From Candidatus Magasanikiibacteriota bacterium (GTDB taxonomy: Bacteria > Patescibacteriota > Patescibacteriia > Magasanikbacterales > 2-02-FULL-50-9b): DNA of 64,000 bases. Below the pieces are notes generated by a model. That model was not told where the DNA came from, made no database searches, and was given only the letters and a program-made list of their open reading frames with translations. Location: the NCBI GenBank assembly GCA_903893485.1, contig CAITMK010000011.1:6636-70635 (forward strand). The letters are read 5' to 3'. Position numbers and translations under genes: made by a program. This document shows, piece by piece, positions 5,347 to 47,392 of this stretch; positions within the stretch are counted from its first letter, which is position 1, and every line of letters begins with the position of its first letter.

Positions 5347-6660
5347 ATGAACTCGTCCTTTGAACAATCACGCGTCCAGTTGCATCGCTACGTTTTTGCG
5401 TTTTTATTGGTGGTTGCTTTTGGTGCCGGTGTTTTATTGGGTAACCATGCGCCACGCACTGCAAGCGCACAGGATGTGCAGACCGATACGGCAACGAGTA
5501 CCGGCGTTGTTGAAAATAAAAATACGATTGGCCGCACCTTGCCAAGTAAAGTTGATTTTCAACAATTTTGGGATGTCTGGCAAAAGATTCAAAATAAATC
5601 CGTTAAGCGCCCGGTTGATGACGTACAATTATATTACGGCGCCGTCGGTGGACTTGTCGCATCACTTGGCGATCCATACTCAGTGTATTTTCCACCAGAT
5701 ATTGCTAAGGAGTTTCAAGATCAGCTAGCTGGTTCTTTTTCGGGCATTGGTGCAGAAGTTGGCGCTAAAGATGGAAACGTCGTGGTGGTCTCACCACTTC
5801 CAGACACCCCAGCTGAGCGCGCAGGATTAAAGACTGGCGATATTGTTGCTGCCATCGATGGTACTTCAACTTTGAATACGGCCGTTGATGAAGCTGTAAA
5901 AATGATTCGCGGGCAAAAGGGAACCAAAGTTACGCTCACAATTATCCGTGCCGGCTCAAAGGATCCGTTAACGTTCACCATGGTACGCGACACTATTGAA
6001 GTTAAAAGTGTAAAAACTGAACAACTCGATAATAGCGTCATGGACATTACTATTTCAAGTTTTGATGAACAGACGCAAAAATTATTTGCAAACGCGGTTT
6101 TAGAAGCTAAAATGGCACATGCAAAGGGTATCGTGTTGGATTTGCGTAATGATCCAGGTGGATTTTTCGACAGCGCAATTATGGTTGCTAGTGAATTTTT
6201 AGCAGACAATCAAGTGGTTGTTGCAGAACGCGATTCCACGCAAGTTGGCACCAAAAATCGCAAAGAATTTGTCACCGAAGGCACGCACGGATTACTTGGC
6301 ATTCCAACCGCGGTTTTGATCAATGGTGGATCAGCGAGTGCCTCTGAAATTGTCGCGGGTGCGCTTCAAGACCACAAAGTTGCAACATTAATTGGTGAAA
6401 AATCTTTTGGTAAAGGTTCGGTGCAAGAATATGAACAGCTCGCAGATGGTTCGGCGCTTAAATTAACCGTTGCGTTATGGTTTACACCAGACGATCATAC
6501 GATCAACCAAACCGGTATTCAGCCAGACGTGGTTATTGTGCCACCAAAAGTAGATCCTAAAAAAGTTGCGTTGCCCGTGGATCCGCTTAAGGCAAAAGAT
6601 TGGAGAACCGATCCATTTATCATGAAAGCCATGGAGATACTGAAGACAAAAATTAAATAG
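5347..6660 (+). CDS. Carboxyl-terminal processing peptidase (S41 family) with PDZ domain
   Basis: N-terminal TM; PDZ-like GLKTGDIVAAIDG; S41 catalytic region INGGSASASEIVAGALQDHKVATLIGEKSFGKGSVQ. Confidence 0.8.
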   Translation: MNSSFEQSRVQLHRYVFAFLLVVAFGAGVLLGNHAPRTASAQDVQTDTATSTGVVENKNTIGRTLPSKVDFQQFWDVWQKIQNKSVKRPVDDVQLYYGAVGGLVASLGDPYSVYFPPDIAKEFQDQLAGSFSGIGAEVGAKDGNVVVVSPLPDTPAERAGLKTGDIVAAIDGTSTLNTAVDEAVKMIRGQKGTKVTLTIIRAGSKDPLTFTMVRDTIEVKSVKTEQLDNSVMDITISSFDEQTQKLFANAVLEAKMAHAKGIVLDLRNDPGGFFDSAIMVASEFLADNQVVVAERDSTQVGTKNRKEFVTEGTHGLLGIPTAVLINGGSASASEIVAGALQDHKVATLIGEKSFGKGSVQEYEQLADGSALKLTVALWFTPDDHTINQTGIQPDVVIVPPKVDPKKVALPVDPLKAKDWRTDPFIMKAMEILKTKIK

Positions 6661-12997: not shown

Positions 12998-13003
12998 TAC
13001 TAA

Positions 13004-13032
13004 AAAAACCACCTTCGGGTGGTTTTTTTAGT
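13004..13032. terminator. Hairpin terminator after tRNA-Lys
   Basis: aaaaaaACCACCttcgGGTGGTttttttt. Confidence 0.6.
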
Positions 13033-33056: not shown

Positions 33057-33656
33057 ATGTCACGCGAAGTGGTCTTTGACATTGAAACACAGAATACCTT
33101 TGAAGAAGTCGGCGCCGGAAACCACAAGGGACTTAAAGTCTCATTGGTGGTTACGTATTCCTACGAAGATGATACGTTTCGTACGTTTCGCGAAGAGCAG
33201 CTTAAGGATTTGTGGCCGGTTTTGGAACGCGCGGAACGACTCATTGGCTATAACTCAAAATATTTTGATATTCCGGTTTTACAAAACTATTATACCGGCG
33301 ACCTCATGAAGGTGCCGCATTTAGATTTGCTCGAAGAAATCAAACGCTCAGCCGGGTTTCGCCCAAAGCTCGACGATATTGCAAAGGCAACGCTGAACAC
33401 ACAAAAATCTGGTCATGGTTTGCAAGCGGTTGAATGGTTTAAAACAGGTGAATGGGACAAAATCGAAAAATATTGTATCGATGATGTGCGCATTACGCGC
33501 GATGTGTACGAATACGGAAAAACCCACAAACAAGTTTTCTATCCGGATCTACAAAATAACATCAAACCAATTTCCGTTAAATTTACTCCGGAAAAAGTTT
33601 TTGCAGCAGGTGGCGTTCCAACTACCGGCGGCATGAACATGACGTTGCCTTTCTAA
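33057..33656 (+). CDS. DEDD-family 3'-5' exonuclease (RNase H-like fold)
   Basis: VVFDIETQN (Exo I), YNSKYFDIPVL (Exo II), YCIDDVRITRDVYEY (Exo III). Confidence 0.5.
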   Translation: MSREVVFDIETQNTFEEVGAGNHKGLKVSLVVTYSYEDDTFRTFREEQLKDLWPVLERAERLIGYNSKYFDIPVLQNYYTGDLMKVPHLDLLEEIKRSAGFRPKLDDIAKATLNTQKSGHGLQAVEWFKTGEWDKIEKYCIDDVRITRDVYEYGKTHKQVFYPDLQNNIKPISVKFTPEKVFAAGGVPTTGGMNMTLPF

Positions 33657-33657
33657 T

Positions 33658-34929
33658 ATGAAAAAATTTTTGGCCGCTTGCCTTGGAAAACTAACTGGCC
33701 GCGTGCTCCAAAAATATCAGCCGCGTATTATTGCGGTGACCGGATCCGTTGGTAAAACAACAACAAAAATTGCCATTGCGGCGGTGCTGCAAACTAAATT
33801 TTCAGTGCGCAGCGCAACCAAAAATTATAATAATGAATTAGGATTGCCGCTCGCAATTTTAGGACTCGATGCCCCGGGCAAAAATCCATTTAAATGGTTC
33901 GCGATTTTTGCTGAAGGATTTCGATTATTACTTTCGCAAGATCCGCGATTTCCGCATGTGCTTGTGTTGGAATTTGGCGCGGATCATCCGGGAGATATTG
34001 CGTACTTGTTAAAAATTGCGCAACCGCAAATCGGCGTGGTGACCGCGGTTGCCGCAGCACATACTGAATTTTTTGGTTCCGTTGAAGGCGTGCTCGCAGA
34101 AAAAAAATTAGTTGTGACGCGCCTCGCAGAAGGGGGCACCGCGATTTTAAATACTGACGATGAGCTTATTGCGTCACTGAAGCCAGAAATTAAAGCGCAG
34201 ATCATTACGTACGGTTGCAACACGGGAGAAATTCGTGCAAGCCGTGCGCAAATTCATTACACCATGTCGGGCGATCCAGATGGAATTGAAGTTGGTATAA
34301 CCACCGACGATGGCGAAGTTGGATTTTTAGTTGCAGGAGTTTTAGGTCGGCCGGTTGCATATGCCGCCGCCGCCGCGGTTGCAGTTGGACGAATTTTTAA
34401 TTTATCAAATTCAGAAATTGCAAACGGATTAGCGCTCGCCGATTTTCCGCCGGGCCGCATGCGAATTATTCCGGGCATTAAAAATACCACGCTTATCGAT
34501 GATACGTACAACGCGTCGCCGCGCGCGGCCGCTGAAGCGCTTCGCGTACTTGCAGAAATTCAGGGCAGTGGCCGCCGAGTGGCTGTCTTGGGTGATATGC
34601 TCGAGCTCGGCGCCATGACCGAAGATGAGCATCGTAAAATTGGTTTGCTCGCGGCTGCGTCTGATGTGGCGCTACTTGTTACGGTTGGTGCTGCGTCACG
34701 CGCGTCGGGCGCCGGTGCGCGCGAAGCGGGCATGTCTGAAGATCAAATTTTTCATTTTGATAACGCGGCTGACGCAGGGCTTTTTTTGCAAGATCGTATC
34801 ATGACCGGTGATTATATATTGGTAAAAGGCTCGCAAGGTGTTCGCTGCGAAAAAATTGTAAAAGAATTGATGGCTCAGCCGCTACGCGCGCCGCAATTGC
34901 TGGTGCGTCAGAGTAAGGCGTGGCTATGA
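33658..34929 (+). CDS. murF: UDP-N-acetylmuramoyl-tripeptide–D-alanyl-D-alanine ligase
   Basis: IAVTGSVGKTTTK P-loop, NYNNELGLP, and a C-terminal Mur ligase domain. Confidence 0.75.
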   Translation: MKKFLAACLGKLTGRVLQKYQPRIIAVTGSVGKTTTKIAIAAVLQTKFSVRSATKNYNNELGLPLAILGLDAPGKNPFKWFAIFAEGFRLLLSQDPRFPHVLVLEFGADHPGDIAYLLKIAQPQIGVVTAVAAAHTEFFGSVEGVLAEKKLVVTRLAEGGTAILNTDDELIASLKPEIKAQIITYGCNTGEIRASRAQIHYTMSGDPDGIEVGITTDDGEVGFLVAGVLGRPVAYAAAAAVAVGRIFNLSNSEIANGLALADFPPGRMRIIPGIKNTTLIDDTYNASPRAAAEALRVLAEIQGSGRRVAVLGDMLELGAMTEDEHRKIGLLAAASDVALLVTVGAASRASGAGAREAGMSEDQIFHFDNAADAGLFLQDRIMTGDYILVKGSQGVRCEKIVKELMAQPLRAPQLLVRQSKAWL

Positions 34930-35678
34930 AATTAATTTCATTAAATACTTTTGGTGGCACTTTTTTTGAGTCGCTCATAGAATTTGTGGAGCGTGAAGAG
35001 TCGACCACTGATATTTTTTGTTTTCAAGAAATTTTATCTGAGGCGCATGATGCAACAAATGTGCGCGGTATGCGCATGAATTTGTTTATTGAGCTGCGAA
35101 CTATTTTGGCAGATTTTGATTATGTATCTTTAGTAACCAATCATAAAAATCAAGCGCCTGAAGAAGGATATACTTTTGGTAAAACAATTTTTGTAAAAAA
35201 ACCAATGCAGATTGAGACGCTCACAGATCATACTGAAGGAGCTTTTTTAGTCGCAAAAATCAAACAGATGAATACAGAATTTATAGTCTGTAATGTACAC
35301 GGCCGATCGCTTCCGGGAGAAAAATTTGATACTGCTGAACGTCTTGAACAGTCAAAAAATATTTTAGATTTTTTGGCCGCACAGTCGGGTGAAAAAATTA
35401 TCTGTGGTGATTTTAATTTATTGCCGCAAACACAGAGTATCAAAATGTTTGAAGAAGCTGGCTATAAAAATTTAATTACTGACTTTGCAATTACCACCAC
35501 GCGTGGAACATTGCATAAAAAGACGTATCCAGAATACGCAAATTTACCGGACGGATTTCAAGAATTTGCAGATTACACGTTTGTGATGCCAGGAATTTTA
35601 GTAAAAAGTTTTGACGTACCGGATTTGTCACTCTCGGATCATTTGCCGATGATATTGAATTTTGATGTTATTCAATAA
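34920..35678 (+). CDS. Endonuclease/exonuclease/phosphatase (EEP) family protein
   Basis: ISLNTFGG...FCFQEI N-terminal and LSDHLPMILNFDV C-terminal EEP motifs. Confidence 0.65.
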   Translation: MAMKLISLNTFGGTFFESLIEFVEREESTTDIFCFQEILSEAHDATNVRGMRMNLFIELRTILADFDYVSLVTNHKNQAPEEGYTFGKTIFVKKPMQIETLTDHTEGAFLVAKIKQMNTEFIVCNVHGRSLPGEKFDTAERLEQSKNILDFLAAQSGEKIICGDFNLLPQTQSIKMFEEAGYKNLITDFAITTTRGTLHKKTYPEYANLPDGFQEFADYTFVMPGILVKSFDVPDLSLSDHLPMILNFDVIQ

Positions 35679-35736
35679 ATATTGAAGGGAATTGCTTCGC
35701 GCGGGCTATATGCCTATGCTCGGTCGCGCAGCAGCC

Positions 35737-35757
35737 CTTCGATTCCCGTCAGCACAG
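35737..35757 (+). repeat. Partial copy of the tRNA-Glu 3' end (TΨC loop plus acceptor), inverted relative to the intact tRNA at 43110–43181
   Basis: TTCGATTCCCGTCAGCAC versus tRNA-Glu TTCGATTCCCGTTAGCAC (17/18 match); no complete cloverleaf can be folded around it. Confidence 0.6.
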
Positions 35758-35762
35758 CTGAT

Positions 35763-35800
35763 ATTTAAAAATATCCAGCGTTTGCTGGATATTTTTAAAT
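35763..35800 (+). terminator. Terminator-like hairpin
   Basis: aaaaATATCCAGCgtttGCTGGATATtttt. Confidence 0.6.
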
Positions 35801-35960
35801 AGCCCCGGGGACACTGCTAGCGAACTTTTTTATTCAAGCGGTGCGTGTCGAGCCTGAAATGCGGCAGTGGAGTGCTGACATCCGCAACTTTTTGAGTAAG
35901 GAAATACGGGAACCTAAATTTATGGTAACATACTAAAAAGCCATAAATAAAAAGAAAACT

Positions 35961-36143
35961 ATGTCATTACAACGAAAAGACGCATTGACCGACCTTATTC
36001 ATCACACGCCACGCGACAACGGACAAAATAACAAGCCACAAGGGCAAAGCCAACCTGCCGGAACAGTAATTGCGGCAGATGGTACATTAGTAACCCTTGG
36101 CTTAAATCAGAGTAAAAATTCGTCTGACACCTCTAATAAGTAA
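35961..36143 (+). CDS. Hypothetical small protein (low-complexity, Gln/Asn/Ser-rich)
   Basis: 60 aa ORF at the left edge of the AT-rich island; weak support. Confidence 0.2.
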   Translation: MSLQRKDALTDLIHHTPRDNGQNNKPQGQSQPAGTVIAADGTLVTLGLNQSKNSSDTSNK

Positions 36144-36169
36144 CACATGAACCTTAGTGGGTTAACAAT

Positions 36170-37432
36170 ATGCTGGGAAAAGATTTTGACGACATCGATT
36201 GTGATACCGTAAAAGCATTTTTAGAAAGTCAGGCTGACGAAACCCAAAAGATTGAGTTTAAAAGAGAAGCGTGGATTGATAAGCCTGATAAAGATGCCGA
36301 AAAAGGTGATGAAATGTTAAAGGATATTACAGGAATGGCTAACGCGTACGGCGGCTATATTTTACTTGGTGTGAAACAAAATAAAGAAAATGAGGTAATC
36401 ACTTATGAATTTTTTAATATTCCTGACCATGATAAAGAGATGGTGCGCATTAAGCAAAGATGCAACGCATGCATACAACCACGTCTTGATGGTTTTAAAA
36501 TAAAGAGTGTGGAGATGACAACGCTGGAAAAGGAAAGGGTGGTAATTCTGATTTTGAATGTTCCTCGGGGTATTAATGCGCCGCACGCAGCAAAAATGAC
36601 TGATATGCGCGCGGCCTATTGGTTTTGGCGTCGTTATGGTGACATTGTTTTGCCGATGCAGACATTTGATATACGAAAACAAATTATGGATACTTATTTT
36701 GGGACGGAGACTTTGGAGAAAAAATTTACTGATGCTTTTAATCATTTTAAAATCATTAATCATAGCGCGCCGCCATACATTTGGTTGGTCGCTAGTCCGG
36801 CAGATGTTTTGTCTAATAATCGAGTTGACATTAAAAATTCAGCAGTCAAACAAGCCTTTATAAATGAAAAAAGTGCATATACAACCAATCCTTTTCAATT
36901 CACTTTTAAATCTGAAGAATTAAAATATACGGTACGGGGTTTGTGCGCAGCAAGGTCGGGCTATAATATGGGTAAGCGTATAGAACTTCATAAGAGTGGT
37001 TTTCTTCAGGGTATTGGATTTTCTATTTTATCCGAAGAGCCGGGCGCATCAAGTAGACAGTTGTTATCTACATATCGGATTAGGTCGTTTATTTTGAGTT
37101 TTATTAGTCAGGTGTACACCTTATATCAAAATGCAAATATTCAGGGCGGTGTTGATTTTCAGGTTGCAATTGGACAAGCGCAGGGATGCAAACTTCCAAA
37201 TAGGGAGAAAGCACAATACGAAATTGGCATGGCTAGCACAATGATTGTAGAAAATTCATACGATGACACCGTACCACTTATATCTGAAATTATTCATATA
37301 GATGATTTTGACCGTAAACAAATTTTGTTGGTCGCTGACGATTTAGCTGAAAAGGTTTGGAATGGCTTTGGATTTGAAAAAGCAGCGCAATTTAGCCAAG
37401 AATATATTGACGATATAATGAGCCAAACATAG
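36170..37432 (+). CDS. AlbA_2/Schlafen-like putative nucleic-acid-binding domain protein with uncharacterised C-terminal domain
   Basis: The N-terminal roughly 140 aa carry the KIEFKRE...ITGMANAYGGYILLGV...VVILILNVPRG hallmark of the AlbA_2 (Schlafen-type) domain; the remaining roughly 280 aa are unrecognised. AT-rich codon usage. Confidence 0.55.
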   Translation: MLGKDFDDIDCDTVKAFLESQADETQKIEFKREAWIDKPDKDAEKGDEMLKDITGMANAYGGYILLGVKQNKENEVITYEFFNIPDHDKEMVRIKQRCNACIQPRLDGFKIKSVEMTTLEKERVVILILNVPRGINAPHAAKMTDMRAAYWFWRRYGDIVLPMQTFDIRKQIMDTYFGTETLEKKFTDAFNHFKIINHSAPPYIWLVASPADVLSNNRVDIKNSAVKQAFINEKSAYTTNPFQFTFKSEELKYTVRGLCAARSGYNMGKRIELHKSGFLQGIGFSILSEEPGASSRQLLSTYRIRSFILSFISQVYTLYQNANIQGGVDFQVAIGQAQGCKLPNREKAQYEIGMASTMIVENSYDDTVPLISEIIHIDDFDRKQILLVADDLAEKVWNGFGFEKAAQFSQEYIDDIMSQT

Positions 37433-37448
37433 CGCCAACAGGCTTTAT

Positions 37449-37862
37449 ATGACCTCTAATACTGTTAGTTTGGGTAGTTACGAAGAATCGTACAAATCTG
37501 ACACTTACGCTCAGTTTCAGGAACTCATAAGCACGCGTACAGCTTTGTGTACCCATAAGAACAGCTCAGTAGATAAAAACGAACGTGAGAGTACACGAAG
37601 AGCAAAAGACCGTCTCGTGGCAATTTATGGGCACTACGGTTACGTCAGTGTGAGTGTTGCGGTGCGGTATGCAGGAATAAGCCGAGACACCTACTACCGT
37701 TACTTACGTGAGGACGCAAATTTCGCGGCAAAAATTAATGAGGCGCAGGAATTTCTAAATGACTATGTGGAAGACCTATTGCTTAAAAAAATTGTGCGGG
37801 ACGAAAATATAGCTTGTATCAAGTTTTATTTATCCCACCGACACCCGGCTTACAGGAAGTAA
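37449..37862 (+). CDS. HTH-domain protein
   Basis: 137 aa; VSVAVRYAGISRDTYYRYLRE looks like a helix-turn-helix (resolvase/terminase-small-subunit style). Confidence 0.4.
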   Translation: MTSNTVSLGSYEESYKSDTYAQFQELISTRTALCTHKNSSVDKNERESTRRAKDRLVAIYGHYGYVSVSVAVRYAGISRDTYYRYLREDANFAAKINEAQEFLNDYVEDLLLKKIVRDENIACIKFYLSHRHPAYRK

Positions 37863-37866
37863 TATA

Positions 37867-38193
37867 TTAGGATTTGAGTAGCGAAACAATGATTTGAACG
37901 ATACCAACAAAAACAAGTGCGCCAGTCAAATAAGTCATTCGGTTTGCATATTTTTCATTACTCGCACTAAGCTCGGTGTTTGATTTGATACTTTTTTCGG
38001 CGCTTTCTCTAATTGTACCTCGCAGCTGCGCAACACTAAGAGGAATTTGAGTGCTGAGGAGTTGTATGGCTTTTGCAAGTTCCTCTGATTTTTCTCCAGT
38101 AAACAATGCTGCTGCTGCATTTACACTAACGTCGGCGGTGGAATGCGGATTATCTTTATATCGACTTAATAATTCGGTTGGGGTCATTGGCAT
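37867..38193 (-). CDS. Hypothetical C-terminally membrane-anchored protein
   Basis: MPMTPTELL...; C-terminal TM (LTGALVFVGIVQIIVSLL); the start lies 2 nt after the stop of the upstream gene. Confidence 0.35.
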   Translation of the reverse strand: MPMTPTELLSRYKDNPHSTADVSVNAAAALFTGEKSEELAKAIQLLSTQIPLSVAQLRGTIRESAEKSIKSNTELSASNEKYANRMTYLTGALVFVGIVQIIVSLLKS

Positions 38194-38195
38194 AG

Positions 38196-39245
38196 TTATT
38201 TGTTGCGCAGAAGAGCACGAAAAAGAGCCAAGATACCTGAAGCAAAAAAAGCAAAAGTAAAGTTGTATTGGATGATTGTAACAATCAAGGAAATCAACCA
38301 GAGGGCAAAGGAAATCACAATGAAGAGCCAAAACCACTGAATAACAAAAAGGAAAACGTTGAATTTGAAACCAGAAGAAGTTTCATTTATGACGTTATTT
38401 TTAAGGTTCGGTATATCCTCATTTTCGAGGTCGGCTATATCATCCTGTTTATTGATAGTAGGCTTTTTATTTAGAAAAAACTCAACACGTTCCAGCACCT
38501 CTTTACCAGACCTAAACTCATTATAAGATATGCCGACATATTTTTCGGATTTTTCTTCAAATAATTGCTCAAGAACTTTATTTAGGTGCTCTCTAGCACT
38601 TTCTAATTCCGCTTCAGACATCACATCCCGTTTTGTTTTCGGATACGAAATTATATCTAAATCTTCGGACTCGTCCATTATTTGTAAACCCGTTTCATCT
38701 GACTTGAGTGCCATTTCTACTTTGAGCGTCGCATCCTTTATTTTTTCTGATAACTGTCGTAAATATCGACGGTGGTCATTTGGAGTAATTATTTCAGGAT
38801 GCTTGGAAAGGATATACATTGAGACAGGGTTACCCGCCCAGCCCTCGTGCCACTCAACCTCTTTTTTGAGGCCGTCAATAAGCTCATCGGTCGAGGTAAT
38901 GAAATCAAGCCAATCTTTCCCCTCTCGTTCTTTGCGAATAGCTGACTCTAAAACGACCCCGTCTTTTACACTGTATCGTTCTGGTGGTTCGTGCTTTTGT
39001 TCAATGAGTCGCGTTTCTACCTTTATAGGATTAGTTTTTATACGGTATTCGAATTTGTCGGTGTAATAATCATATTCAAGACTCATCATTGATTGATAAG
39101 TCTTTGTTTCTGGGTATACGTCAAAAGTACAATCACCAAAGGTGAGTGTACCGTTGCCATCTTCTTCAAAAATTTCTATTTCCATAAAATTGGTATACCC
39201 ATAATAGGATACATACACTTTCCCATATTGAGACCTAAAAATCAA
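38196..39245 (-). CDS. Hypothetical protein with soluble N-terminal domain and two C-terminal TM helices
   Basis: 349 aa; acidic coiled N-terminal region; C-terminal FNVFLFVIQWFWLFIVISFALWLISLIVTII plus a second TM. Confidence 0.45.
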   Translation of the reverse strand: MIFRSQYGKVYVSYYGYTNFMEIEIFEEDGNGTLTFGDCTFDVYPETKTYQSMMSLEYDYYTDKFEYRIKTNPIKVETRLIEQKHEPPERYSVKDGVVLESAIRKEREGKDWLDFITSTDELIDGLKKEVEWHEGWAGNPVSMYILSKHPEIITPNDHRRYLRQLSEKIKDATLKVEMALKSDETGLQIMDESEDLDIISYPKTKRDVMSEAELESAREHLNKVLEQLFEEKSEKYVGISYNEFRSGKEVLERVEFFLNKKPTINKQDDIADLENEDIPNLKNNVINETSSGFKFNVFLFVIQWFWLFIVISFALWLISLIVTIIQYNFTFAFFASGILALFRALLRNK

Positions 39246-39250
39246 CTATA

Positions 39251-39868
39251 TTAGTGACATTGTGGACTTAAACTGCGGTTTGGGTACGCCTGCAATAGGT
39301 CTGTGAGCGAGCCAAAAGATTTAAGATATTTAGGACTTAAACTTCGCCACGCACTGCATGATGCTGGATAATACAGCTTGGCTGAGCCGTACGATGAAGT
39401 GTAATATGCCGGCGCTTCCTGCGTTGGTGGCGTGATTGGCAAAATGGTTGGTGCTGGTGCTTCATTTACCACAACCGGTGCTGTAGTTATTTGCGGCACA
39501 AACACTGGAGCTGCCAGCTCTGAATTTGTAGCAGCCTTAGTAGGCTTTGTTTGCGGTGATTTATAGTGAGTGAGCCAATCTGTCGAAATTTCTTTTTGCG
39601 CCTCGTCAATGGTCATTTTACCGGTGCAGACTTGTTTGTGTAGCTTGTTTTCAAAAACGTCTTTGACTCGTGACCCATTATTTATACCATACGCTTCAGG
39701 CCACAAATTTGAAATGTCATTACTGCCACCAAGTTCAAGACTGATGAGATGGTCAACTTCGTAATTGCTGCGGCGGCTGTATGGAATACCATATTCTGCG
39801 AATACCTGTTTTTTCTCGGTCGTGGTTACATTGCGCACCGTCTTTGTGTAACCGGTTTTACAAATCAC
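39251..39868 (-). CDS. Secreted HNH endonuclease (annotated from an internal GTG; in-frame signal-peptide-like sequence continues upstream to about 40033)
   Basis: HNH motif YEVDHLISLELGGSNDISNLWP; Pro/Thr-rich linker. Upstream in frame: KSSHFITPIAFALSLFIITPAFA|DYG (a signal peptide with an AFA cleavage site) but no ATG/GTG/TTG before it. Confidence 0.6.
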   Translation of the reverse strand: MICKTGYTKTVRNVTTTEKKQVFAEYGIPYSRRSNYEVDHLISLELGGSNDISNLWPEAYGINNGSRVKDVFENKLHKQVCTGKMTIDEAQKEISTDWLTHYKSPQTKPTKAATNSELAAPVFVPQITTAPVVVNEAPAPTILPITPPTQEAPAYYTSSYGSAKLYYPASCSAWRSLSPKYLKSFGSLTDLLQAYPNRSLSPQCH

Positions 39869-40097
39869 CGAAATGTCAGTGGTGAGAACTGCGCCCGGCG
39901 TACATGCAGGGTCTTGATATGCGGTGTTACCAACGCAACCAACTGTTTTGGTTTGTACGCCGTAATCAGCAAATGCAGGCGTAATAATGAATAACGAAAG
40001 CGCGAACGCGATGGGGGTAATGAAATGGGAGGATTTTATAGGGGTTTATTTTTAGGGAAAATATCACGAATTATTTTGCTGCTTGATTAGGCGTATT

Positions 40098-41153
40098 TTA
40101 CTGTAGCTCAACACTCGTGCCATCCCAGTCACTCCAACGACCTGTTGCGACTGTTCTGATGCCGTTGCTTATGTTGACCTGAACACTCGAATTTGGATAA
40201 TTTTGCTTCAGTGATTTCACGAGGCTGGTTACAAAATCTTTTTTAGTCGTATCGGTCGCATATGCCCATGAAATATTAGTTACGTCTGCAGCCAAGGTTG
40301 CTGCGGTAACTTTCCCTCGATAGTCACTTTCATCGCCACCTGCAGCGTAGTCTTTCTCAGCATCATCTGGTGCTTGAAGATTAACAGCACCATCGAAACC
40401 GACTGATTTATAAAGTGTAATGAAGGTTGTCGCGGTTTGTGCGGCCATGGAGTTGTTACCAAGGTTCGTATCAAATTTCTGACGCTGCGAAATCGTCGCC
40501 TGAAGCGCTTGTGGTGAGATAATGAATGCGCCGGTAAATTTACTCGCATCGTTAATTTCTGGAACGAATTTGACGCGGTAGTCAGCACCAGCGATGTTGA
40601 AATTGCCCGCAATACCTAGAACACTTTTATCTGCTACAGCGTCAGTTGATGTTATAAAGAAGTTTTTTACTGCTAGTGTTTTATAGTCGTACGTGACGTC
40701 AAGCGATATATCACCATTCTGATACGTTTCGTCCCATTCGTAATTGGCTGCTTGCAGTTCTGATTTACTTGGTGTTGCAGCATCTTTTGGTTTACCGCCA
40801 AGTGCAGCGCGAATTTGTGTGATGTTTTTTCCAAATAACGATGGAATATCAAATGATGGTTTTGGCTGCGGTGGCACTTCTGCAACAGCCTGCTGTACAT
40901 CTGGCTTATTTTCTGGCGCAGCGGCTGGTATGGAAGTTGTCAGCTGATTTTGATTTGTAGCTGCAACGGTCGCCGGTTTTGGAGGCGCTGGAGGTGCAGT
41001 GGCAGCAACACCAAAAAAGCCAACGATAAATGTAATACCGCAGACCATAAGAACACGTTTGCGGGATGGAAGTTTAATCCGTGCCGGATTGATTAAGCCT
41101 ACGATGCCTACAACAATAGAGCCGAGTAAAATGATGACAAAAATGCCTGACAT
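40098..41153 (-). CDS. Hypothetical membrane-anchored protein with Pro-rich linker
   Basis: Two N-terminal TMs, APPAPPKPATVAAT linker and a roughly 250 aa extracytoplasmic domain. Confidence 0.45.
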   Translation of the reverse strand: MSGIFVIILLGSIVVGIVGLINPARIKLPSRKRVLMVCGITFIVGFFGVAATAPPAPPKPATVAATNQNQLTTSIPAAAPENKPDVQQAVAEVPPQPKPSFDIPSLFGKNITQIRAALGGKPKDAATPSKSELQAANYEWDETYQNGDISLDVTYDYKTLAVKNFFITSTDAVADKSVLGIAGNFNIAGADYRVKFVPEINDASKFTGAFIISPQALQATISQRQKFDTNLGNNSMAAQTATTFITLYKSVGFDGAVNLQAPDDAEKDYAAGGDESDYRGKVTAATLAADVTNISWAYATDTTKKDFVTSLVKSLKQNYPNSSVQVNISNGIRTVATGRWSDWDGTSVELQ

Positions 41154-41458
41154 ATTTTTATACAACTGGGTATTTTGCAATATGCCACGATGGATTTTGC
41201 ATTATACAATTTGAATAAAACCGGATTGTCTTAAATAAAAAAAGCGACACCCGGGGTGTCGAAGCCCAACTTAAGCACAGGTCGTGCTGAGGTTGTTTTA
41301 CCGGGCGCCGCTTTCATCGCGCGACCTGGAAAAATAGCCAAATGGCCTACTTAAGTTGAACTTCGACCAAAACAATATAGCTTAAAATTTTGACTAAGTA
41401 AAGCCGTAGTAACTTTTGCGGCAATGAGGTAAAATTAATGATACATAATGCATAAAAT

Positions 41459-43147
41459 ATGGCAGAAGATGACAAAAGCGTTTCAAACCTAGTTGCTCGT
41501 CTCAAGAACACAATTGGTGTTGAAAAACAGGCCGAACAAGACCTTGAAAACATGCGTTATGTTGCTTATGTTCGTAAAAGCACTGACGATGGCGTCCACC
41601 AGCTTCGTTCAATTGGCGACCAAATCAAAGAATGCAGAGATTTGGCGATAAGAATAGGTGTCGGAAGAGTACCTATTGTACCCGAAGAACAATCGGCTAA
41701 AATTTCCGATAAACGTCCTAAATTTCGGCAAATGCTGAACGATATCGTCGATGGTAAATATGATGGGATTATTGCTTGGGCTCCTGACCGTCTAGCGCGC
41801 AATATGAAAGAAGGTGGTGAAATCATCGACCTGCTTGACCGTGGCGTAATCAAAGACATTAAGTTCGCTAACAATTATATGTTTAGCAACGACCCATCAG
41901 GTAAAATGTTGCTCGGCATTGCGTTTGTAATGGCAAAACAGTATTCAGACCAACATGGGCAAAATGTGAAACGTGGCTTTGACCACCTAACAGAAGACGG
42001 AAAGTGTGGTGGTGCAGCAAAGCATGGATACTACAAAGACCAGCATAAGTTTTTACAACCAGATGGTGAGAATTGGACGCTTATTAAGCGGGCGTTTGAA
42101 ATGCGTTTAGATAAAAAAAGCCTTAAAGAAATTTCAGAGTTTTTAGAGGAGGCTGGATACCCGCTGCAAACGAAACACAGTAAACGTACCTCAATAAATG
42201 TAAATGTAAAATTTGTATCCGACATGTTTCGTGACCCATTTTATGCTGGTGCAATGGTTCGAGGCGACAAAATTATTGAATTGTCAAAAAAATATAAATT
42301 CACGCCAATTATTACATCAGAACAGTTTGATGAGATGACAACCTTAGATAAGATTAGTAAAACATTTCGCCTGACTGAGGCAATCAAAGAGAGAGGGTCA
42401 GTAAGGGCAGATTTGATGCGTAAGATGATTATTTGCGCACACTGCAAGCGCTTCATGTCGGCGAGTATAAATGAAAAGCACACAACACTTAAAAGTGGTG
42501 AACGGCGCGAGATAAACTATCTTAGATATAGGTGCGATACCGGAGGTTGTAAAAGAAAAGGGAAAACGGTTAGAGCAAAGATTATCTGTGACGCGGCGTT
42601 TGAATTTCTTAAAACGCACCCAATGAACATAAATGAGGGTTATGAAGCCTATGCGCGTGAAATGGAACGACAAGCGGTACTTCAAGGCACGGACGTCGCA
42701 ACGCGACTGCAATCACTTAAGCAGCGCCGCGTGGTTATCATCAATCGTAAGAGCATTGCAAGGCAGGATATGGAGGAATATGCGCCTGACCCTCTGATGC
42801 GCAAAGAGTTTGCAAGTGAATTTCGAAATCAGACACAACTGCTAAAAGACATTGATAAACTCATTGATGAGACTGAGCAAGAAAAAGAGGGTAAAAAATC
42901 AGCAAATAAGAGCCTCATGGAATTCATCGAACTATTCAATAATTTGACTAAGGTTATACAAAATTATAAGCACATGGAGGACTTGGATTATGTGATGAAA
43001 AAAGTGTTCTCGAACTTTGAAACTGATGGTAAAAAAGTGACTAAGATAACACAAAACTCCCCTTTCAGGGAGCTGTGTGAGCCAGTTAAGGCTGTAAATT
43101 GTACTAATATAGTGCTAACGGGAATCGAACCCGTCTTCTTAGATTGA
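41459..43147 (+). CDS. Large serine recombinase (phage-integrase-type)
   Basis: N-terminal resolvase catalytic domain YVAYVRKSTDDGV...SIGDQ (nucleophilic Ser), recombinase domain, zinc-ribbon CAHCKRF...YLRYRCDTGGC and a coiled-coil tail. The last about 12 codons are the reverse complement of the tRNA-Glu TΨC arm. Confidence 0.85.
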   Translation: MAEDDKSVSNLVARLKNTIGVEKQAEQDLENMRYVAYVRKSTDDGVHQLRSIGDQIKECRDLAIRIGVGRVPIVPEEQSAKISDKRPKFRQMLNDIVDGKYDGIIAWAPDRLARNMKEGGEIIDLLDRGVIKDIKFANNYMFSNDPSGKMLLGIAFVMAKQYSDQHGQNVKRGFDHLTEDGKCGGAAKHGYYKDQHKFLQPDGENWTLIKRAFEMRLDKKSLKEISEFLEEAGYPLQTKHSKRTSINVNVKFVSDMFRDPFYAGAMVRGDKIIELSKKYKFTPIITSEQFDEMTTLDKISKTFRLTEAIKERGSVRADLMRKMIICAHCKRFMSASINEKHTTLKSGERREINYLRYRCDTGGCKRKGKTVRAKIICDAAFEFLKTHPMNINEGYEAYAREMERQAVLQGTDVATRLQSLKQRRVVIINRKSIARQDMEEYAPDPLMRKEFASEFRNQTQLLKDIDKLIDETEQEKEGKKSANKSLMEFIELFNNLTKVIQNYKHMEDLDYVMKKVFSNFETDGKKVTKITQNSPFRELCEPVKAVNCTNIVLTGIEPVFLD

Positions 43148-43181
43148 GAATCTAATGTCCTAACCGATAGACGATAGCACC
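43110..43181 (-). tRNA. tRNA-Glu (anticodon CTC)
   Basis: Minus strand: GGTGCTATCGTCTATCGGTTAGGACATTAGATTCTCAATCTAAGAAGACGGGTTCGATTCCCGTTAGCACT; perfect anticodon stem TTAGA/TCTAA, loop TTCTCAA; G1·U72. Confidence 0.7.
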
Positions 43182-43362
43182 AAGTGAGGAGCAACGTCCA
43201 CGCTTGCGTGGACGGTTGTTCCGAACGCCGGTGCGCGCTTTCGCAAAGCGAAAGCCTAGCAGCCAGCCGAATATCGCTGGCATCATTCTATCAATTCCCA
43301 CCAAAAATTTCAAGATGTACCAAAAAAGCATTATGTCCGTATTGCTTATGTAATTTTTATTT

Positions 43363-43929: not shown

Positions 43930-44742
43930 ATGAATTTTGAACCAAAGCGCAATGAACCGCAATTTAATTTGGGGCGCGTCGACGAAATCTTGCTGTCTGA
44001 TGGTGCGCAATTTGAGACAATGGGGTTTGATGCCCAAGCGCCAGTACTGGGTCTGCTGTCCAGACGCGAGCAGCGTAATACGCAGGCACTCATCAGCCGG
44101 CTGGAAGGAAATCCGCATTTCCAAGCGCCACGTGAGGATGACTTGGCCGCGCCGTACGGTAGTTACCTGGGCCGTCACGTGATCGGCTTTGGTACGCGGA
44201 TCCAAGGTGGTGTGTACATGGGGCGCAAGCCGCGCGAAGCGATTGTCGTGGATGCGACGTCAAAGGTGGTTCGTCGCCTACATTACAAGCTGCGCTTGCA
44301 ACTGCTCATCTTCACGGCGCAGCATCTCTGGACGCGTCGAGGGAGTATTGATCGGGGGCAGATTCAGCGCGAGCAACTCAAGTTCATCATGCGTTTTGTG
44401 CAACGGACGCTCGTGTTCGATAACCACGCAGTGACCGCGCTCATTGAATTTTACGGCGCAAAGCACGACGTAAAATTGTCCCTGAACGCCTTCATTGAAG
44501 CGCGCGTTGGGGTGTGCCGCCACCAAGTGTGCTTGTATGGTGTGCTGGTTGAGTTGTTGCAGGAAGACGGTTTGCTTGGCGGCAAAGTGTCGGTGCAGCG
44601 GGCTCGATTCGCACGGTTCAGCCACGCGTGGGTCCGGTTCACGAGCCAATGGGGGCAAGTGTACATCATCGATCCGGCGCAAGACCGTTTTGCCAACCTC
44701 AGTGAAATGGGGGAAATGGAGCGAGAATTTTACAGTATTTAG
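43930..44742 (+). CDS. Transglutaminase-like cysteine protease superfamily protein (GC-rich cassette)
   Basis: Cys-His-Asp arrangement GVCRHQVCLYGVLVELL ... FSHAWVRF ... YIIDPAQD typical of transglutaminase-like cores. Own promoter (TTGACA-17-TACTGT), SD GGAGGTG and downstream terminator. Confidence 0.5.
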   Translation: MNFEPKRNEPQFNLGRVDEILLSDGAQFETMGFDAQAPVLGLLSRREQRNTQALISRLEGNPHFQAPREDDLAAPYGSYLGRHVIGFGTRIQGGVYMGRKPREAIVVDATSKVVRRLHYKLRLQLLIFTAQHLWTRRGSIDRGQIQREQLKFIMRFVQRTLVFDNHAVTALIEFYGAKHDVKLSLNAFIEARVGVCRHQVCLYGVLVELLQEDGLLGGKVSVQRARFARFSHAWVRFTSQWGQVYIIDPAQDRFANLSEMGEMEREFYSI

Positions 44743-44889: not shown

Positions 44890-46692
44890 ATGGATATTCG
44901 AAACATCGCGATCATCGCGCACGTTGACCACGGCAAAACCACGCTCGTGGATGCTTTGCTAAAACTTACTCATACCAAAATTGGTAACGAACGTCCAATG
45001 GAACGCGTGATGGACAACAACGATTTGGAACGTGAACGCGGTATTACTATTTTCTCTAAAAATGCATCCATTCATTACGGAGACACCAAAATTAATATTA
45101 TCGACACCCCAGGCCACGCTGACTTTGGTGGTGAAGTTGAACGTGTTTTGAAAATGGCTGATGGCGCACTTTTGCTCGTTGATGCAAAAGAAGGTCCAAT
45201 GCCACAGACTAAATTCGTTTTGAAAAAAGCAATTAACTTGGGGCTCCGCGTTATTGTGGTTATCAACAAAATCGATAAGAAAGATGCACGTTGCGAATAT
45301 GTGCTCAACACAACCTTTGATTTGTTTGGCGCACTTGGTGCAAGCGATCGCCAGCTCGACTTCCCAGTTATTTACGCTGCAGCAATTGCGGGCAAGGCTG
45401 GCTACGAAGACAACTTGGAAGCAATGACCGATATCACTCCAATTCTTGATACCGTAATTAAGGAAGTTCCACCACCAACCGGTGATGCAGAAGCGCCACT
45501 CCAAATGCTTGTGGTTTCACTTCGCATGGACAACTATAAGGGTAAGCTCGCGATTGGCCGTATCTTTAATGGCCGTGTGAAAAAAGGCGACACCATTATG
45601 CACATCAATCGCGATGGTAAAATGACCAAGCAAAAAGTTACCGCGCTCATGGCGTTCGAAGGTTTGGAAACAACTGAAATCGAGCACGCACAGGCTGGTG
45701 ACATTATTTTGCTCGCTGGTATCCCAGATGTTTCAATTGGTGACACCGTTGCAGATGCAACAAACCCAATTGCACTCGACATGCTCGACATCGAACAGCC
45801 AACCGTGAAAATGACATTCCGCGTGAATGACTCACCATTTAACGGCAAACAGGCTGGTACCAAAAATACTTCACGCCTTCTTCGTGAACGTTTGGACAAG
45901 GAACTTGAAACAGACGTTGCACTTCGCGTCGAGCAGGGCGACAGTGCTGACAACTTTATTGTGTCAGGCCGTGGTGAATTGCACCTTGCAATTTTGATCG
46001 AAAAAATGCGTCGTGAAGGTTTTGAATTGCAGGTTACCCGTCCACAGGTGGTTACGCACATGGAAAATGGTGTTGAAATGGAACCAGCTGAAGATGTATA
46101 CGTTGAAGTTCCAGAAACATATGCAGGTACCGTTATCGAAAAGCTTGGTAAACGCCGTGGTGAAATGAAAAACTACGCTGTGCAGGAAGGCCACGCGCAG
46201 GTGCATTTCCTTATCCCAACTCGTGGGCTTATTGGCTACCGTAATGAATTCATGACCGACACCAAGGGTACCGGTATCTTGAACTCACTTTTTAATGGAT
46301 TCATTCCATGGGTACAGAACTTGTCAACAAGCAATCACAGTTCACTTATTGCGTACGAATCTGGTGTTACCACCGGTTACGCGCTTGAATCAGCGGGTGA
46401 ACGCGGTCAATTGTTTGTGGGTCCAGCAACAGAAGTTTATGCTGGTCAAGTTGTTGGTCAGAATGCTAAAGACGAAGATCTTGAAGTTAATGTGTGTAAG
46501 GAAAAACGTTTGTCTAACATGCGTTCATCTGGCGCGGACATGGCAGTTAAATTGGAACCACATCGCACACTCACCCTTGAAGAAGCTATTGAATATATTA
46601 GCGACGATGAATGGGTAGAAATTGTTCCAAGCGAAATTCGTATTCGTAAGCAGTGGTTAAGTCCGAATGATCGTAAGAAAAACGGAAGATAA
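44890..46692 (+). CDS. typA: Translational GTPase TypA/BipA
   Basis: IRNIAIIAHVDHGKTTLVDALL (G1), DTPGHADFGGEVER (G3), NKIDK (G4), EF-G-like domains; 600 aa. Confidence 0.9.
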   Translation: MDIRNIAIIAHVDHGKTTLVDALLKLTHTKIGNERPMERVMDNNDLERERGITIFSKNASIHYGDTKINIIDTPGHADFGGEVERVLKMADGALLLVDAKEGPMPQTKFVLKKAINLGLRVIVVINKIDKKDARCEYVLNTTFDLFGALGASDRQLDFPVIYAAAIAGKAGYEDNLEAMTDITPILDTVIKEVPPPTGDAEAPLQMLVVSLRMDNYKGKLAIGRIFNGRVKKGDTIMHINRDGKMTKQKVTALMAFEGLETTEIEHAQAGDIILLAGIPDVSIGDTVADATNPIALDMLDIEQPTVKMTFRVNDSPFNGKQAGTKNTSRLLRERLDKELETDVALRVEQGDSADNFIVSGRGELHLAILIEKMRREGFELQVTRPQVVTHMENGVEMEPAEDVYVEVPETYAGTVIEKLGKRRGEMKNYAVQEGHAQVHFLIPTRGLIGYRNEFMTDTKGTGILNSLFNGFIPWVQNLSTSNHSSLIAYESGVTTGYALESAGERGQLFVGPATEVYAGQVVGQNAKDEDLEVNVCKEKRLSNMRSSGADMAVKLEPHRTLTLEEAIEYISDDEWVEIVPSEIRIRKQWLSPNDRKKNGR

Positions 46693-46876: not shown

Positions 46877-47392
46877 ATGAGCACACTTGAAAGCGTCATG
46901 GAATTGCTGAGCAGGCATACCTTCAGTGTTGAGCACAACCCGAATTGTCCATCACCATACCTCGTTCGTCTGGTGGGCTTTCAGCGGGGTGGGCTGGACA
47001 AATTTGAGCCCAACGCAACTAATGACTACATGGGCTACGGCAAGACTCTCGTCGAGGCGGCGGATGCAGCATTTAGCGCAAAGACGGCATTCGATACATT
47101 CGTCGCAAATTCACGCTGCCCGGTTTGTACGGAAAAGCCAAAGCGACTTTGGTTTGAGGGTCGGGTGCGCAAGGTCTGCAAAAAATGTCAGGCCGCACAG
47201 CCTGACCTCACGGTCGCGCATCACAATTTCTCGTGCAAGAGCTGCGGTAACTGGTACTTGTATCACGATAGCACGCTGTATTGGTACGGGTTATATCACG
47301 ATGGCGTGGTGTCCAAGGGCGCTGATCGGCGTCCGCCAGGCATGAAATCAGTTGCCGAACTGACCTCGCCGCTGAGGCATTTTCTTCCATGA
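46877..47392 (+). CDS. Hypothetical zinc-ribbon protein (GC-rich cassette)
   Basis: CPVC...CKKC and CKSC Cys pairs; SD AGGAGGG; upstream TTGACC-17-TAACCT; downstream terminator. Confidence 0.4.
   Translation: MSTLESVMELLSRHTFSVEHNPNCPSPYLVRLVGFQRGGLDKFEPNATNDYMGYGKTLVEAADAAFSAKTAFDTFVANSRCPVCTEKPKRLWFEGRVRKVCKKCQAAQPDLTVAHHNFSCKSCGNWYLYHDSTLYWYGLYHDGVVSKGADRRPPGMKSVAELTSPLRHFLP

Follow-up and report, generated by a model that had tools for sequence, protein, structure and literature searches.

A probable attachment site inside a large serine recombinase gene and an island inserted at a tRNA-Glu end in a Candidatus Magasanikiibacteriota genome

Introduction

In a 64,000-nucleotide (nt) stretch of Candidatus Magasanikiibacteriota DNA (assembly GCA_903893485.1, contig CAITMK010000011.1, positions 6,636 to 70,635 of the forward strand; the whole stretch is referred to as the window, and positions are counted from its first letter), the gene of a large serine recombinase (LSR) runs into a convergent tRNA-Glu gene and stops inside it. 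This arrangement raises the question of why a recombinase gene should end within a tRNA, and what its ending reveals about the way the adjoining island was inserted. An earlier sequence-only reading of the DNA treated a recombinase sitting on a tRNA end as the classic footprint of an integrated element; that footprint is classic for tyrosine integrases, and the enzyme here is a serine recombinase. Comparison with related genomes favors a more particular answer, which we consider likely: the LSR inserted its element between the last base pairs of tRNA-Glu(CTC) and a terminator hairpin, with attP, the element's attachment site, located in the LSR gene itself. The sequence-only reading had noted the overlap and missed this apparent cause of it, with the remainder of the gene left at the other end of the island.

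The recombinase gene and its overlap with tRNA-Glu

The two overlapping genes are the following.

41459–43147, plus strand: large serine recombinase, integrated short form, 562 residues (open reading frame (ORF) list, Pfam, alignment, PHROGs)
43110–43181, minus strand: host tRNA-Glu(CTC), intact, the integration target (Rfam, 61.7 bits; ARAGORN gives 43109–43182)

Residues 35–182 of the LSR match the Pfam family Resolvase (PF00239, E 1.2e-20) and residues 205–294 the family Recombinase (PF07508, E 2.5e-9), while PF13408 is precomputed on many of its homologues. The catalytic-serine motif YVRKSTDD is present, and in an alignment of 30 sequences (the LSR of the window and 29 homologues) R39, S41 and T42 are invariant, as are the zinc-ribbon residues C326, C329, C359 and C364. 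By these sequence and domain tests the enzyme qualifies as a large serine recombinase, and the earlier description of a 562-residue LSR with a catalytic-serine motif, a zinc ribbon and a full catalytic N-terminal domain was borne out. More than 500 homologues were detected, most of them in bacteria of the candidate phyla radiation (CPR). LSRs of cultured phages are only about 22–24% identical to the window enzyme, and its matches in PDB are the solved SPbeta structures (E 2e-4, catalytic domain only). A separate feature of the family is an N-terminal extension, LVxRLxxxFG, which precedes the catalytic domain (residues 1–34, 41459–41560) and for which a helix at residues 13–23 is predicted in the AlphaFold model of the homologue P0019; we know of no characterized serine integrase with a conserved N-terminal extension of this kind.

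The LSR ORF runs 38 nt into the convergent tRNA-Glu(CTC). Codons 551–562, (I)VLTGIEPVFLD, and the stop codon are the antisense of the acceptor 3' strand, the T arm and the variable loop of the tRNA, in agreement with the earlier estimate of about 12 codons; residues 1–551 come from the element, and residues 552–562 with the stop from the antisense host tRNA. The same layout recurs among the homologues, whose C-termini carry a conserved ITQNSPFRELC motif followed by tails such as MVAPRGIEPLLTA, VALTGIEPVFSD and DPAGLEPATPCLQSRCSTK, all three of which are translated reverse complements of tRNA 3' halves. A minority of the homologues instead bear a long tail ending ...VTY, and other database homologues share a long tail ending ...VTY or ...(R/K)L.

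Position of the junctions in empty and occupied sites

Relatives were chosen by scanning species-representative genomes with the TypA sequence encoded at 44890–46692, and the closest belonged to Candidatus Magasanikbacteria (TypA identity 86% for L009, 85% for L010 and 69% for L011). Gene order in L009 is SOD, a hypothetical gene, peroxiredoxin, an RNase-H-like gene and murF, with a minus-strand tRNA-Glu(CTC) about 220 nt further on; in L010 it is murF and a gene of the endonuclease/exonuclease/phosphatase (EEP) family, with a minus-strand tRNA-Glu(CTC) about 160 nt further on. No LSR match was found in L009 or L010 at this empty murF(-EEP)/tRNA-Glu site, an absence that the sequence-only reading had anticipated, and in both genomes a hairpin with a T-run directly follows the tRNA's 3' end. 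The corresponding features of the window are as follows.

33658–34929, plus strand: murF, host gene left of the island
34920–35678, plus strand: EEP gene, host, followed by a 280-nt intergenic stretch
35762–35801, no strand assigned: host terminator-like hairpin with a perfect 18-bp stem; the equivalent hairpin abuts the tRNA in L009 and L010
35800–35802, no strand assigned: left junction core TAG, common to four close islands and both empty sites
43110–43112, no strand assigned: right junction core TAG, equal to tRNA positions 73–71

Because the hairpin abuts the tRNA in the empty sites and is 7.3 kb away from it in the window, the block was inserted between the tRNA end and the terminator. 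Equivalent hairpins adjoin the left end of the islands in L174, L175, L177 and L178, and we infer that the hairpin at 35762–35801 is the host half-site (B') of the left junction.

Several relatives carry islands that allowed the junctions to be aligned. The LSR of L174 is 68% identical to that of the window, its island targets tRNA-Glu(TTC), and its cargo consists of orf60 and an AlbA_2 gene. The island of L175, L176 and L089 (LSR 52% identical) occupies the murF–TypA locus as in the window, with a cargo that differs and includes HNH_5, ThsB_TIR and SNase genes; the LSR of the L177 island is 53% identical. On their left, the islands of the window, L175/L176/L089, L177 and L174 show the order host hairpin, TAG and a conserved arm ...ACAYTnC...CGAACTTTTT, the arm after TAG being CCCCGGGGACACTGCTAGCGAACTTTTTT in the window. 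The right ends read as a conserved arm ...GATTGTnnnnn(TGG), TAG and the tRNA body, the arm being ...AAATTGTACTAATA in the window and ...GATTGTACTTTGG in the relatives, and the empty sites of L009 and L010 read hairpin, TAG and tRNA body. Since TAG is the sole sequence common to all junctions and to the empty sites, strand exchange would have taken place within it. The length shared by the two junctions varies from ATAG in the window to TAGC in L175 and L177 and up to 11 nt in L174, and the terminal repeat at the island ends of the window measures only 3–4 nt.

The limits of 35680–43260 given by the sequence-only reading were accordingly too wide: the ends are at 35800–35802 and 43110–43112, so placed that the element would comprise about 7,310 bp (approximately 35802–43111), while 35680–35800 and the tRNA-Glu gene are host DNA outside the island. 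Alignment of the two island ends, which that reading had proposed as a way to attL and attR, yielded only an 18-bp inverted repeat, and the TAG core came from the related islands. Three other readings were dropped. A 9-nt direct repeat GTYAGCACT (35871–35879 and 43111–43119) had been considered as the core until the four related islands aligned at TAG; the 18-bp inverted repeat had been considered as a terminal repeat or P arm of the element and is shared by the island-less L009 and L010; and the tRNA had been placed within the variable block, given that L001 and L002 diverge at 43311/43312, until the tRNA and its upstream hairpin proved to be conserved in L009.

The junctions also bear on the earlier claim that the element reconstituted its target tRNA. 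For that to hold, the crossover would have to lie deeper, in the T loop, with the T arm and the acceptor 3' half derived from the element; the overlap of the LSR ORF with the T arm fits this, and a displaced 17-nt tRNA-Glu 3' fragment beside the EEP gene of L010 resembles the fossil of such an event. Against it, end alignment and repeat searches found the tRNA 3' half neither displaced nor directly repeated at the island's left end, and the GCCCCGGGG beside the left core would not pair with the 5' strand of this tRNA. In addition, the acceptor stem is GGTGCTA/TAGCACT in the window and GGCGCTA/TAGCGCT in the relatives, with both strands changed; such paired differences are what host DNA should show, and fit a host origin of the 3' strand and an exchange at the extreme 3' end. 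Among 27 distant loci, exact matching for tRNA fragments at the far end gave scattered matches of 10–15 nt only. We therefore regard a deep crossover as extremely improbable; on the sequence evidence, the whole tRNA body appears to be host DNA, with the exchange confined to the last three positions, 71–73, and the claim of reconstitution fell.

Continuation of the recombinase gene at the opposite end

When the ends of the island are joined in silico, 43111 to 35802, the LSR frame remains open for another 44 codons up to a stop at 35934–35936, giving a long form of 595 residues.

35802–35936, plus strand: tail exon of 44 codons and stop, encoding APGTLLANFFIQAVRVEPEMRQWSADIRNFLSKEIREPKFMVTY; the LSR frame continues into it across the joined ends

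The first 30 nt or so of this exon are also the element half-site P, with a conserved CGAACTTTTTT at 35821–35831. The exon is 135 nt long in the window, L174, L175 and L177 alike. Over the 45 aligned positions (44 residues and the stop), 32 are conserved between the window and L174, and 25 between L175 and L177; the corresponding nucleotide differences at codon positions 1, 2 and 3 number 7/7/18 and 10/8/22, a third-position bias, and the remaining two frames hold 2–4 stops. The pattern TL..NFF....E..MR.W..D...FL..E........Y followed by the stop is kept in the four islands. Searched with a profile of the tail, the window and L174–L179 showed single, stand-alone exons at the left ends of their islands. 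The integrated element is flanked, in other words, by both parts of its integrase gene, and attP probably lies within that gene, 44 codons ahead of its stop.

One can also picture an ordinary LSR insertion at a tRNA end, in which the tail is conserved for functions of the DNA (the P half-site and a promoter of orf60), the protein ends near residue 545 and the read-through is incidental. LSR zinc-ribbon domains bind attP arms about 20–30 nt from the core, and the conserved CGAACTTTTT lies at about this distance; a sigma-70-like TTGAGT, 17 nt, TAAATT can be seen in the exon by eye, and was not called by the scan tool. The short tail is clearly dispensable, as two near-identical IMG/VR proviral contigs show: between L169 (10390–10402) and L170 (11569–11626), a one-base difference in the acceptor/T-stem region of a tRNA-Gly creates a stop that shortens one LSR tail by 15 residues, and the tRNA-encoded short tail is therefore not under protein selection. 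AlphaFold confidence in the long tail is also just about 70. Yet the exon is constant in length and frame and free of stops in every element, the third-position bias spans its whole length, beyond the arm, and the peptide ...MRRW..D...FL..E....VTY with its stop is kept down to about 40% identity, the ORFs stopping at one aligned position. An incidental tail is hence decidedly unlikely in our view, and we retain the reading in which the exon encodes the end of the recombinase.

Tandem elements, a circular relative and the wider family

Two relatives carry two LSR elements in tandem at one tRNA-Glu (L178, 6160–14725; L179, 3200–15040). Each of these elements has its own tail exon, and the same core occurs three times per array, as TGGTAGC in L178 and TGGTGACCC in L179. 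The upstream LSRs read through the inter-element junction into the next tail exon to give proteins of 607 and 579 residues, which accounts for these two long-form database proteins. The downstream element of L179 also encodes a SocA/Panacea-domain protein, an AAA_25 ATPase and a second, shorter LSR of 514 residues. An uninterrupted long form was found as well on L182, a 4,929-nt contig from which a tRNA gene is absent and whose LSR is 38–39% identical to that of the window; its first and last 30 nt are identical, as expected of a circle assembled at k=31. A second candidate circle, L181, with a terminal overlap of 15 nt, was not counted as evidence.

More widely, 82 metagenomic or viral loci with LSR relatives of 27–52% identity were collected, 65 of them with a complete 3' end. 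The LSR ORF stops inside a convergent tRNA in 47 of the 65, and ten tRNA types are hit among the 47 (Ser, Pro, Gly, Gln, Leu, Glu, Val, Tyr, Ile and Thr). The related elements are small, at 3–7 kb, and among their genes are TIR, HNH, SNase, AAA_15 ATPase and SocA-like ones.

The AlphaFold model of the long-form homologue P0019 (mean pLDDT 80.7) indicates which parts of the protein differ between the two forms. Its standard LSR domains end near residue 545; a beta-rich domain is broken by long helices (396–445 and 450–484), that is, a zinc ribbon with an embedded coiled coil; residues 548–569, a linker encoded by the attachment-site arm, are of low confidence; and a helix follows at 565–588 with a pLDDT of about 70. 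Given where the domains end in the model, integration would remove a linker and a helix and no folded domain, and the short form is predicted to keep the catalytic, recombinase and zinc-ribbon/coiled-coil domains.

These data speak to the possibility that the island is a fixed, immobile remnant, its recombinase crippled by loss of the C-terminal exon in the manner of the archaeal 'suicidal' integrases. All contigs of this species that reach the site contain the island, an empty site or circle was not found, and archaeal integrases, once split, are believed to fix elements at their site, all of which would suit a remnant. The LSR, the tail exon and both arms are nevertheless intact and free of frameshifts, and the loss is limited to a tail outside the domains, with the catalytic and DNA-binding parts remaining. 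Moreover, a relative exists as a circle (L182), and the same site holds different cargo in related genomes, which indicates ongoing turnover. We regard a fixed remnant as unlikely.

A model of integration and its consequences

In the scheme that we favor, the free circle would produce the 595-residue long form, with a flexible linker and an alpha-helix predicted for its final 44 residues, and the circle transcript would perhaps also cover orf60 and the genes downstream of it. The long form may perform integration, inserting the element by strand exchange within TAG with the tRNA body untouched. After integration, the 44 tail codons would stay at the far left end, behind the host terminator, and the LSR gene would read into the antisense tRNA and end after 11 unrelated residues as the 562-residue short form, its mRNA facing convergent tRNA transcription. 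The change of tail, the convergent transcription or both may affect how active or how abundant the enzyme is once the element is integrated, and orf60 may act as an accessory factor. Four components of the scheme emerge from comparison of sequences: the insertion and its junctions, the conserved in-frame tail, the read-through into the tail in the arrays and the circle, and the family-wide layout of the gene running into a tRNA.

The predicted attP junction is ...GTAAATTGTACTAATATAGCCCCGGGGACACTGC... and the predicted attB junction ...GCTGGATATTTTTAAATAGTGCTAACGGGAATCG.... A number of points weigh against the scheme. No empty site or circle of this species came to light in exact-protein look-ups with the cupredoxin, MurF, EEP and LSR sequences, and the predicted attP junction had no exact match in viral contigs; the mobility of this copy is thus suggested by its relatives. 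The species is present in the samples ERZ1426586, ERZ1426703, ERZ27313557, ERZ18661749 and ERZ18662466. The core is pinned to TAG only, and both TA and AG fit as the exchanged dinucleotide. The tail profile found no exons in more distant relatives, in which the flanks are often short. Part of the conservation of the tail exon could be non-coding (the binding arm, with a possible orf60 promoter in the 3' part), the long tail could be as dispensable as the short one, and the circularity of L182 rests on its terminal overlap.

A tentative extension of the scheme, about which we remain doubtful, is that the swap of tails is an inbuilt sensor of state by which the direction of recombination is set. 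Were this so, the long form, made in the free circle only, might be tuned for integration, and the short form, made in the integrated state only, might be tuned for excision or silenced. A separate directionality factor would then be unneeded, or orf60 alone would suffice, and the arrangement would be a widespread strategy of small CPR elements, using at least 10 kinds of tRNA gene. Serine integrases are genome-engineering tools for which control of direction is a central question, and a protein form that depends on the state of integration would provide a simple, testable model of such control.

Terminators, promoter and palindrome around the tRNA

Insertion separates the tRNA from its host terminator, and the element carries a hairpin that may take its place.

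43055–43074, minus strand: terminator-like hairpin with T-run (pattern scan), 36–55 nt past the tRNA 3' end
43285–43313, minus strand: promoter-like site TTGAAA, 17 nt, TG-TAGAAT (consensus match only, 10/12), host DNA, about 100 nt upstream of the tRNA
35738–35755, plus strand: inverted partial copy (17/18 nt) of the T-loop, 3' T-stem and acceptor 3' strand of tRNA-Glu, host DNA

The hairpin at 43055–43074 is antisense to the conserved SPFREL codons of the LSR and is kept in all 10 of 10 related loci. In L178 it shows a compensatory pair of synonymous changes, from CTCCC/GGGAG to CTCTC/GAGAG. With it, we infer, the element provides the tRNA with a substitute terminator; up to that point, transcription of the tRNA would be antisense to the last part of the LSR gene. 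The stretch 43183–43311, which separates the promoter-like site from the tRNA 5' end, is G+C-rich and hairpin-rich and is partly conserved in L009 (CCACGCAAGCGTGG in the window against CTCGCAAGCGAG). An Rfam search of 33–46 kb returned tRNA-Glu only, with no family for 43183–43311 or for the inverted tRNA copy.

The inverted copy at 35738–35755 (partner 43112–43129) is the only such match in the window and is flanked by G+C-rich hairpins. The island-free L009 and L010 as well as L175 carry an inverted copy, each matching its own tRNA; L010 has TTCAACTCCCC, and L009 and L175 share TTCGATTCCC with the window. In an unoccupied site, the tRNA-Glu 3' end, the terminator hairpin and the inverted copy form one large near-palindrome (window 35690–35801 with 43110–43129; L009 8400–8545; L010 6000–6212; L175 4250–4400); it might serve as a pseudo-attB in mirror image or in processing, or be left over from inversions. 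In L011, and in L177 together with the island, the orientation of tRNA-Glu to murF is opposite to that in the window, L009 and L010; the tRNA segment was therefore inverted at some point between these lineages.

These repeats invite the idea that the recombinase is an invertase that acts on them (35738–35755 and 43112–43129) and flips the whole block. The repeat is significant, with 17 of 18 nt matching and no second such match in the window, and the opposite orientation of the tRNA and island in L177, and of the tRNA in L011, would be explained. The left copy, though, is host DNA that occurs in island-free and LSR-free relatives, the shared TAG core falls outside the repeat, the protein is an LSR of the integrase type with zinc ribbon and coiled coil, and the tandem arrays and circular form suit integration and excision. 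An invertase is accordingly very improbable, and integration at the tRNA end remains the preferred explanation.

Three further observations concern tRNA ends in these genomes. In L010 (about 6000–6020, minus-strand reading; about 155 nt downstream of the tRNA), the EEP stop codon directly adjoins a 17-nt direct copy of a tRNA-Glu 3' end, GATTCCCGTTAGCGCTA; the copy matches the tRNA of L009 better than that of L010 itself, and looks like the fossil of an older integration or replacement in a genome that is now island-free. The hairpin beside the island of L174, at 714–746, is 91% identical over 33 nt to window positions 12998–13029, just after tRNA-Lys; it seems that in these genomes more than one tRNA gene is followed by a terminator hairpin of similar sequence. 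Finally, an RmlD-like (dTDP-4-dehydrorhamnose reductase) remnant, ...KLHKQYGHNAFLVH, lies on the minus strand at 43312–43353, upstream of the cupredoxin gene. L001 (1–121) and L002 (1–122), from two other samples, continue this gene as ISTDYVFDGFKINPYDETDATH..., and the window leaves it at 43311/43312 for the G+C-rich tRNA leader, at a break that coincides with the -35 box of the promoter-like site. This break is a strain-level rearrangement directly beside the tRNA and separate from the island.

Cargo of the island

Between the tail exon and the LSR gene, the element carries the following genes.

35961–36143, plus strand: orf60, small backbone gene directly after the tail exon, with same-position homologues in L174 (63% identity), L179 and L178
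36170–37432, plus strand: protein with AlbA_2/Schlafen N-terminal domain, 420 residues (Pfam PF04326, E 1.6e-12)
37449–37862, plus strand: 137-residue protein with weak helix-turn-helix (HTH) (Pfam HTH_Tnp_1_2, E 0.0011; PHROGs small-terminase-like HTH, E 2e-6)
37867–38337, minus strand: small protein with C-terminal membrane segment (108 residues, 37867–38193, as called on other contigs)
38196–39245, minus strand: 329–349-residue protein with two C-terminal membrane segments and no family match (ORF list, Pfam, hydrophobicity)
39251–39868, minus strand: HNH-like nuclease, weak match (Endonuclea_NS_2, E 3e-4; HNH, E 0.009)
40098–41180, minus strand: 351–360-residue protein with two N-terminal membrane segments and no family match (ORF list, Pfam, hydrophobicity)

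Conservation of orf60 after the tail exon in L174, L178 and L179 makes it part of the backbone. It has no match in Pfam, PADLOC or PHROGs; its position makes it a speculative candidate for a regulator or directionality factor. The sequence-only reading was correct about the AlbA_2/Schlafen-like protein, for which a 47%-identical homologue exists in the L174 island and a PADLOC match is absent, and about three membrane proteins, each with hydrophobic segments of transmembrane length. Its HTH protein was recovered with a weak match, and its secreted HNH nuclease was upheld as far as the weak HNH match goes; no N-terminal hydrophobic signal is present, even in the longest possible ORF, and 'secreted' lacks support. 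The C-terminal domain of the HNH-like protein is shared with SNase-family proteins of related islands.

PHROGs found no capsid, tail, portal or large-terminase genes in the island, its matches being the integrase, a 'helicase' match in the AlbA region and the weak small-terminase-like HTH. PADLOC defence models had no match apart from one at chance level (E 0.009). Related islands carry ThsB_TIR, HNH_5, SNase and AAA_15 ATPase genes, and a defence role of the cargo is plausible. The island is a small integrative element with variable, possibly defence-related cargo and not a prophage, a classification made by the earlier reading that also agrees with the equally small size of the related elements.

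Comparison with known systems

Phage LSRs such as phiC31, Bxb1, A118 and SPbeta SprA/YokA share the domain order of the window enzyme (catalytic, recombinase, zinc ribbon with coiled coil), and are likewise encoded at the edge of the element; their short attachment sites, with almost no identity between attP and attB beyond a tiny core, would be matched by the TAG junctions of the window. The window element differs from them in that its target is the end of a tRNA gene, whereas theirs is a protein-coding gene, in that its attP would lie inside the recombinase ORF with integration altering the C-terminus, and in the extra conserved N-terminal helix.

Islander-type tRNA islands, which use tyrosine integrases, resemble the present island in their tRNA-proximal integrase gene at a tRNA 3' end, their variable cargo and the occupation of one site by different islands in related genomes (here L175 and L177). 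Absence from the same site in relatives, which is expected of an Islander, was found in L009 and L010. The Islander signature of an intact tRNA with a displaced fragment differs from the window, where TAG (3–4 nt) is all that is repeated. The Islander authors stated in 2014 that serine integrases were not known to target tRNA genes. The archaeal SSV-type 'suicidal' integrases have their attachment site inside the integrase gene, a property described in a review as exclusive to archaea. They are tyrosine recombinases that lose essential portions when split; the window enzyme, from CPR bacteria, is a serine recombinase, and integration would swap only a 44-residue tail outside its folded domains.

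Dependence of a protein C-terminus on the state of integration, with attP in coding sequence, is a feature that the window would share with the mycobacteriophages BPs and Brujita. In these, Broussard and colleagues reportedly found in 2013 that attP lies inside the repressor gene and that integration by a tyrosine recombinase removes a degradation-tag tail. There the split gene is that of the repressor; in the window it is that of the serine recombinase itself. Filamentous phages of the phiRSM type integrate into tRNA-Ser with a small, resolvase-like enzyme. They too combine a serine-family recombinase with a tRNA gene, but that enzyme is of the small resolvase-like kind. Among tycheposons, a minority carry an LSR (27 of 937 Prochlorococcus elements). 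An attP inside the recombinase gene is not reported for phiRSM or tycheposons in the literature consulted, and literature searches of incomplete coverage returned no report of the split layout for a serine recombinase or for CPR bacteria.

The finding would extend two generalizations, namely that tRNA genes are targets of tyrosine integrases and that only archaea have attachment sites within the gene of the integrase. Engineered fusions of an integrase with its recombination directionality factor, said to have been made by Olorunniji and colleagues in 2017, offer a parallel to the integration-dependent change in form of the window LSR. The LSR family offers many integrase/attB pairs aimed at conserved tRNA ends, in hosts for which almost no genetic tools exist, and small islands with varying nuclease, TIR and Schlafen-like cargo at one locus may be one of the chief ways in which these reduced genomes exchange genes.

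Composition and neighboring sequence

Composition sets the island apart to a moderate degree. Its G+C content is 0.411 (35802–43111) against 0.463 across the remaining window, a dip of about 5 points, and none of the 84 other 7.3-kb windows falls below 0.437; the composition is thus non-uniform, as the sequence-only reading had expected. The lower G+C supports its description of the codon usage as A/T-rich, and 'strongly' was an overstatement: the G+C at third codon positions (GC3) of 0.32–0.44 in the island genes overlaps with flanking-gene values, and one host gene, EEP, has a G+C of 0.354, below the island value.

Two further segments of the neighborhood are of interest in their own right. 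L005 (1–127; ERZ27313554) differs from window positions 33524–33650, upstream of murF, which places a second strain-level breakpoint at 33651; the minus strand of this L005 segment encodes the N-terminus of another EEP-family protein, MKNICKIIISSNTDIVCLQEV.... On the other side of the island, the hypothetical genes that flank typA (43930–44742 and 46877–47392) have G+C contents of 0.55 and 0.54 with neighbors of about 0.45, and GC3 values of 0.64 and 0.61. Neither these two genes nor the cupredoxin gene was detected between the tRNA and typA in L009 or L010, and the G+C-rich genes may represent another acquired or fast-evolving segment.

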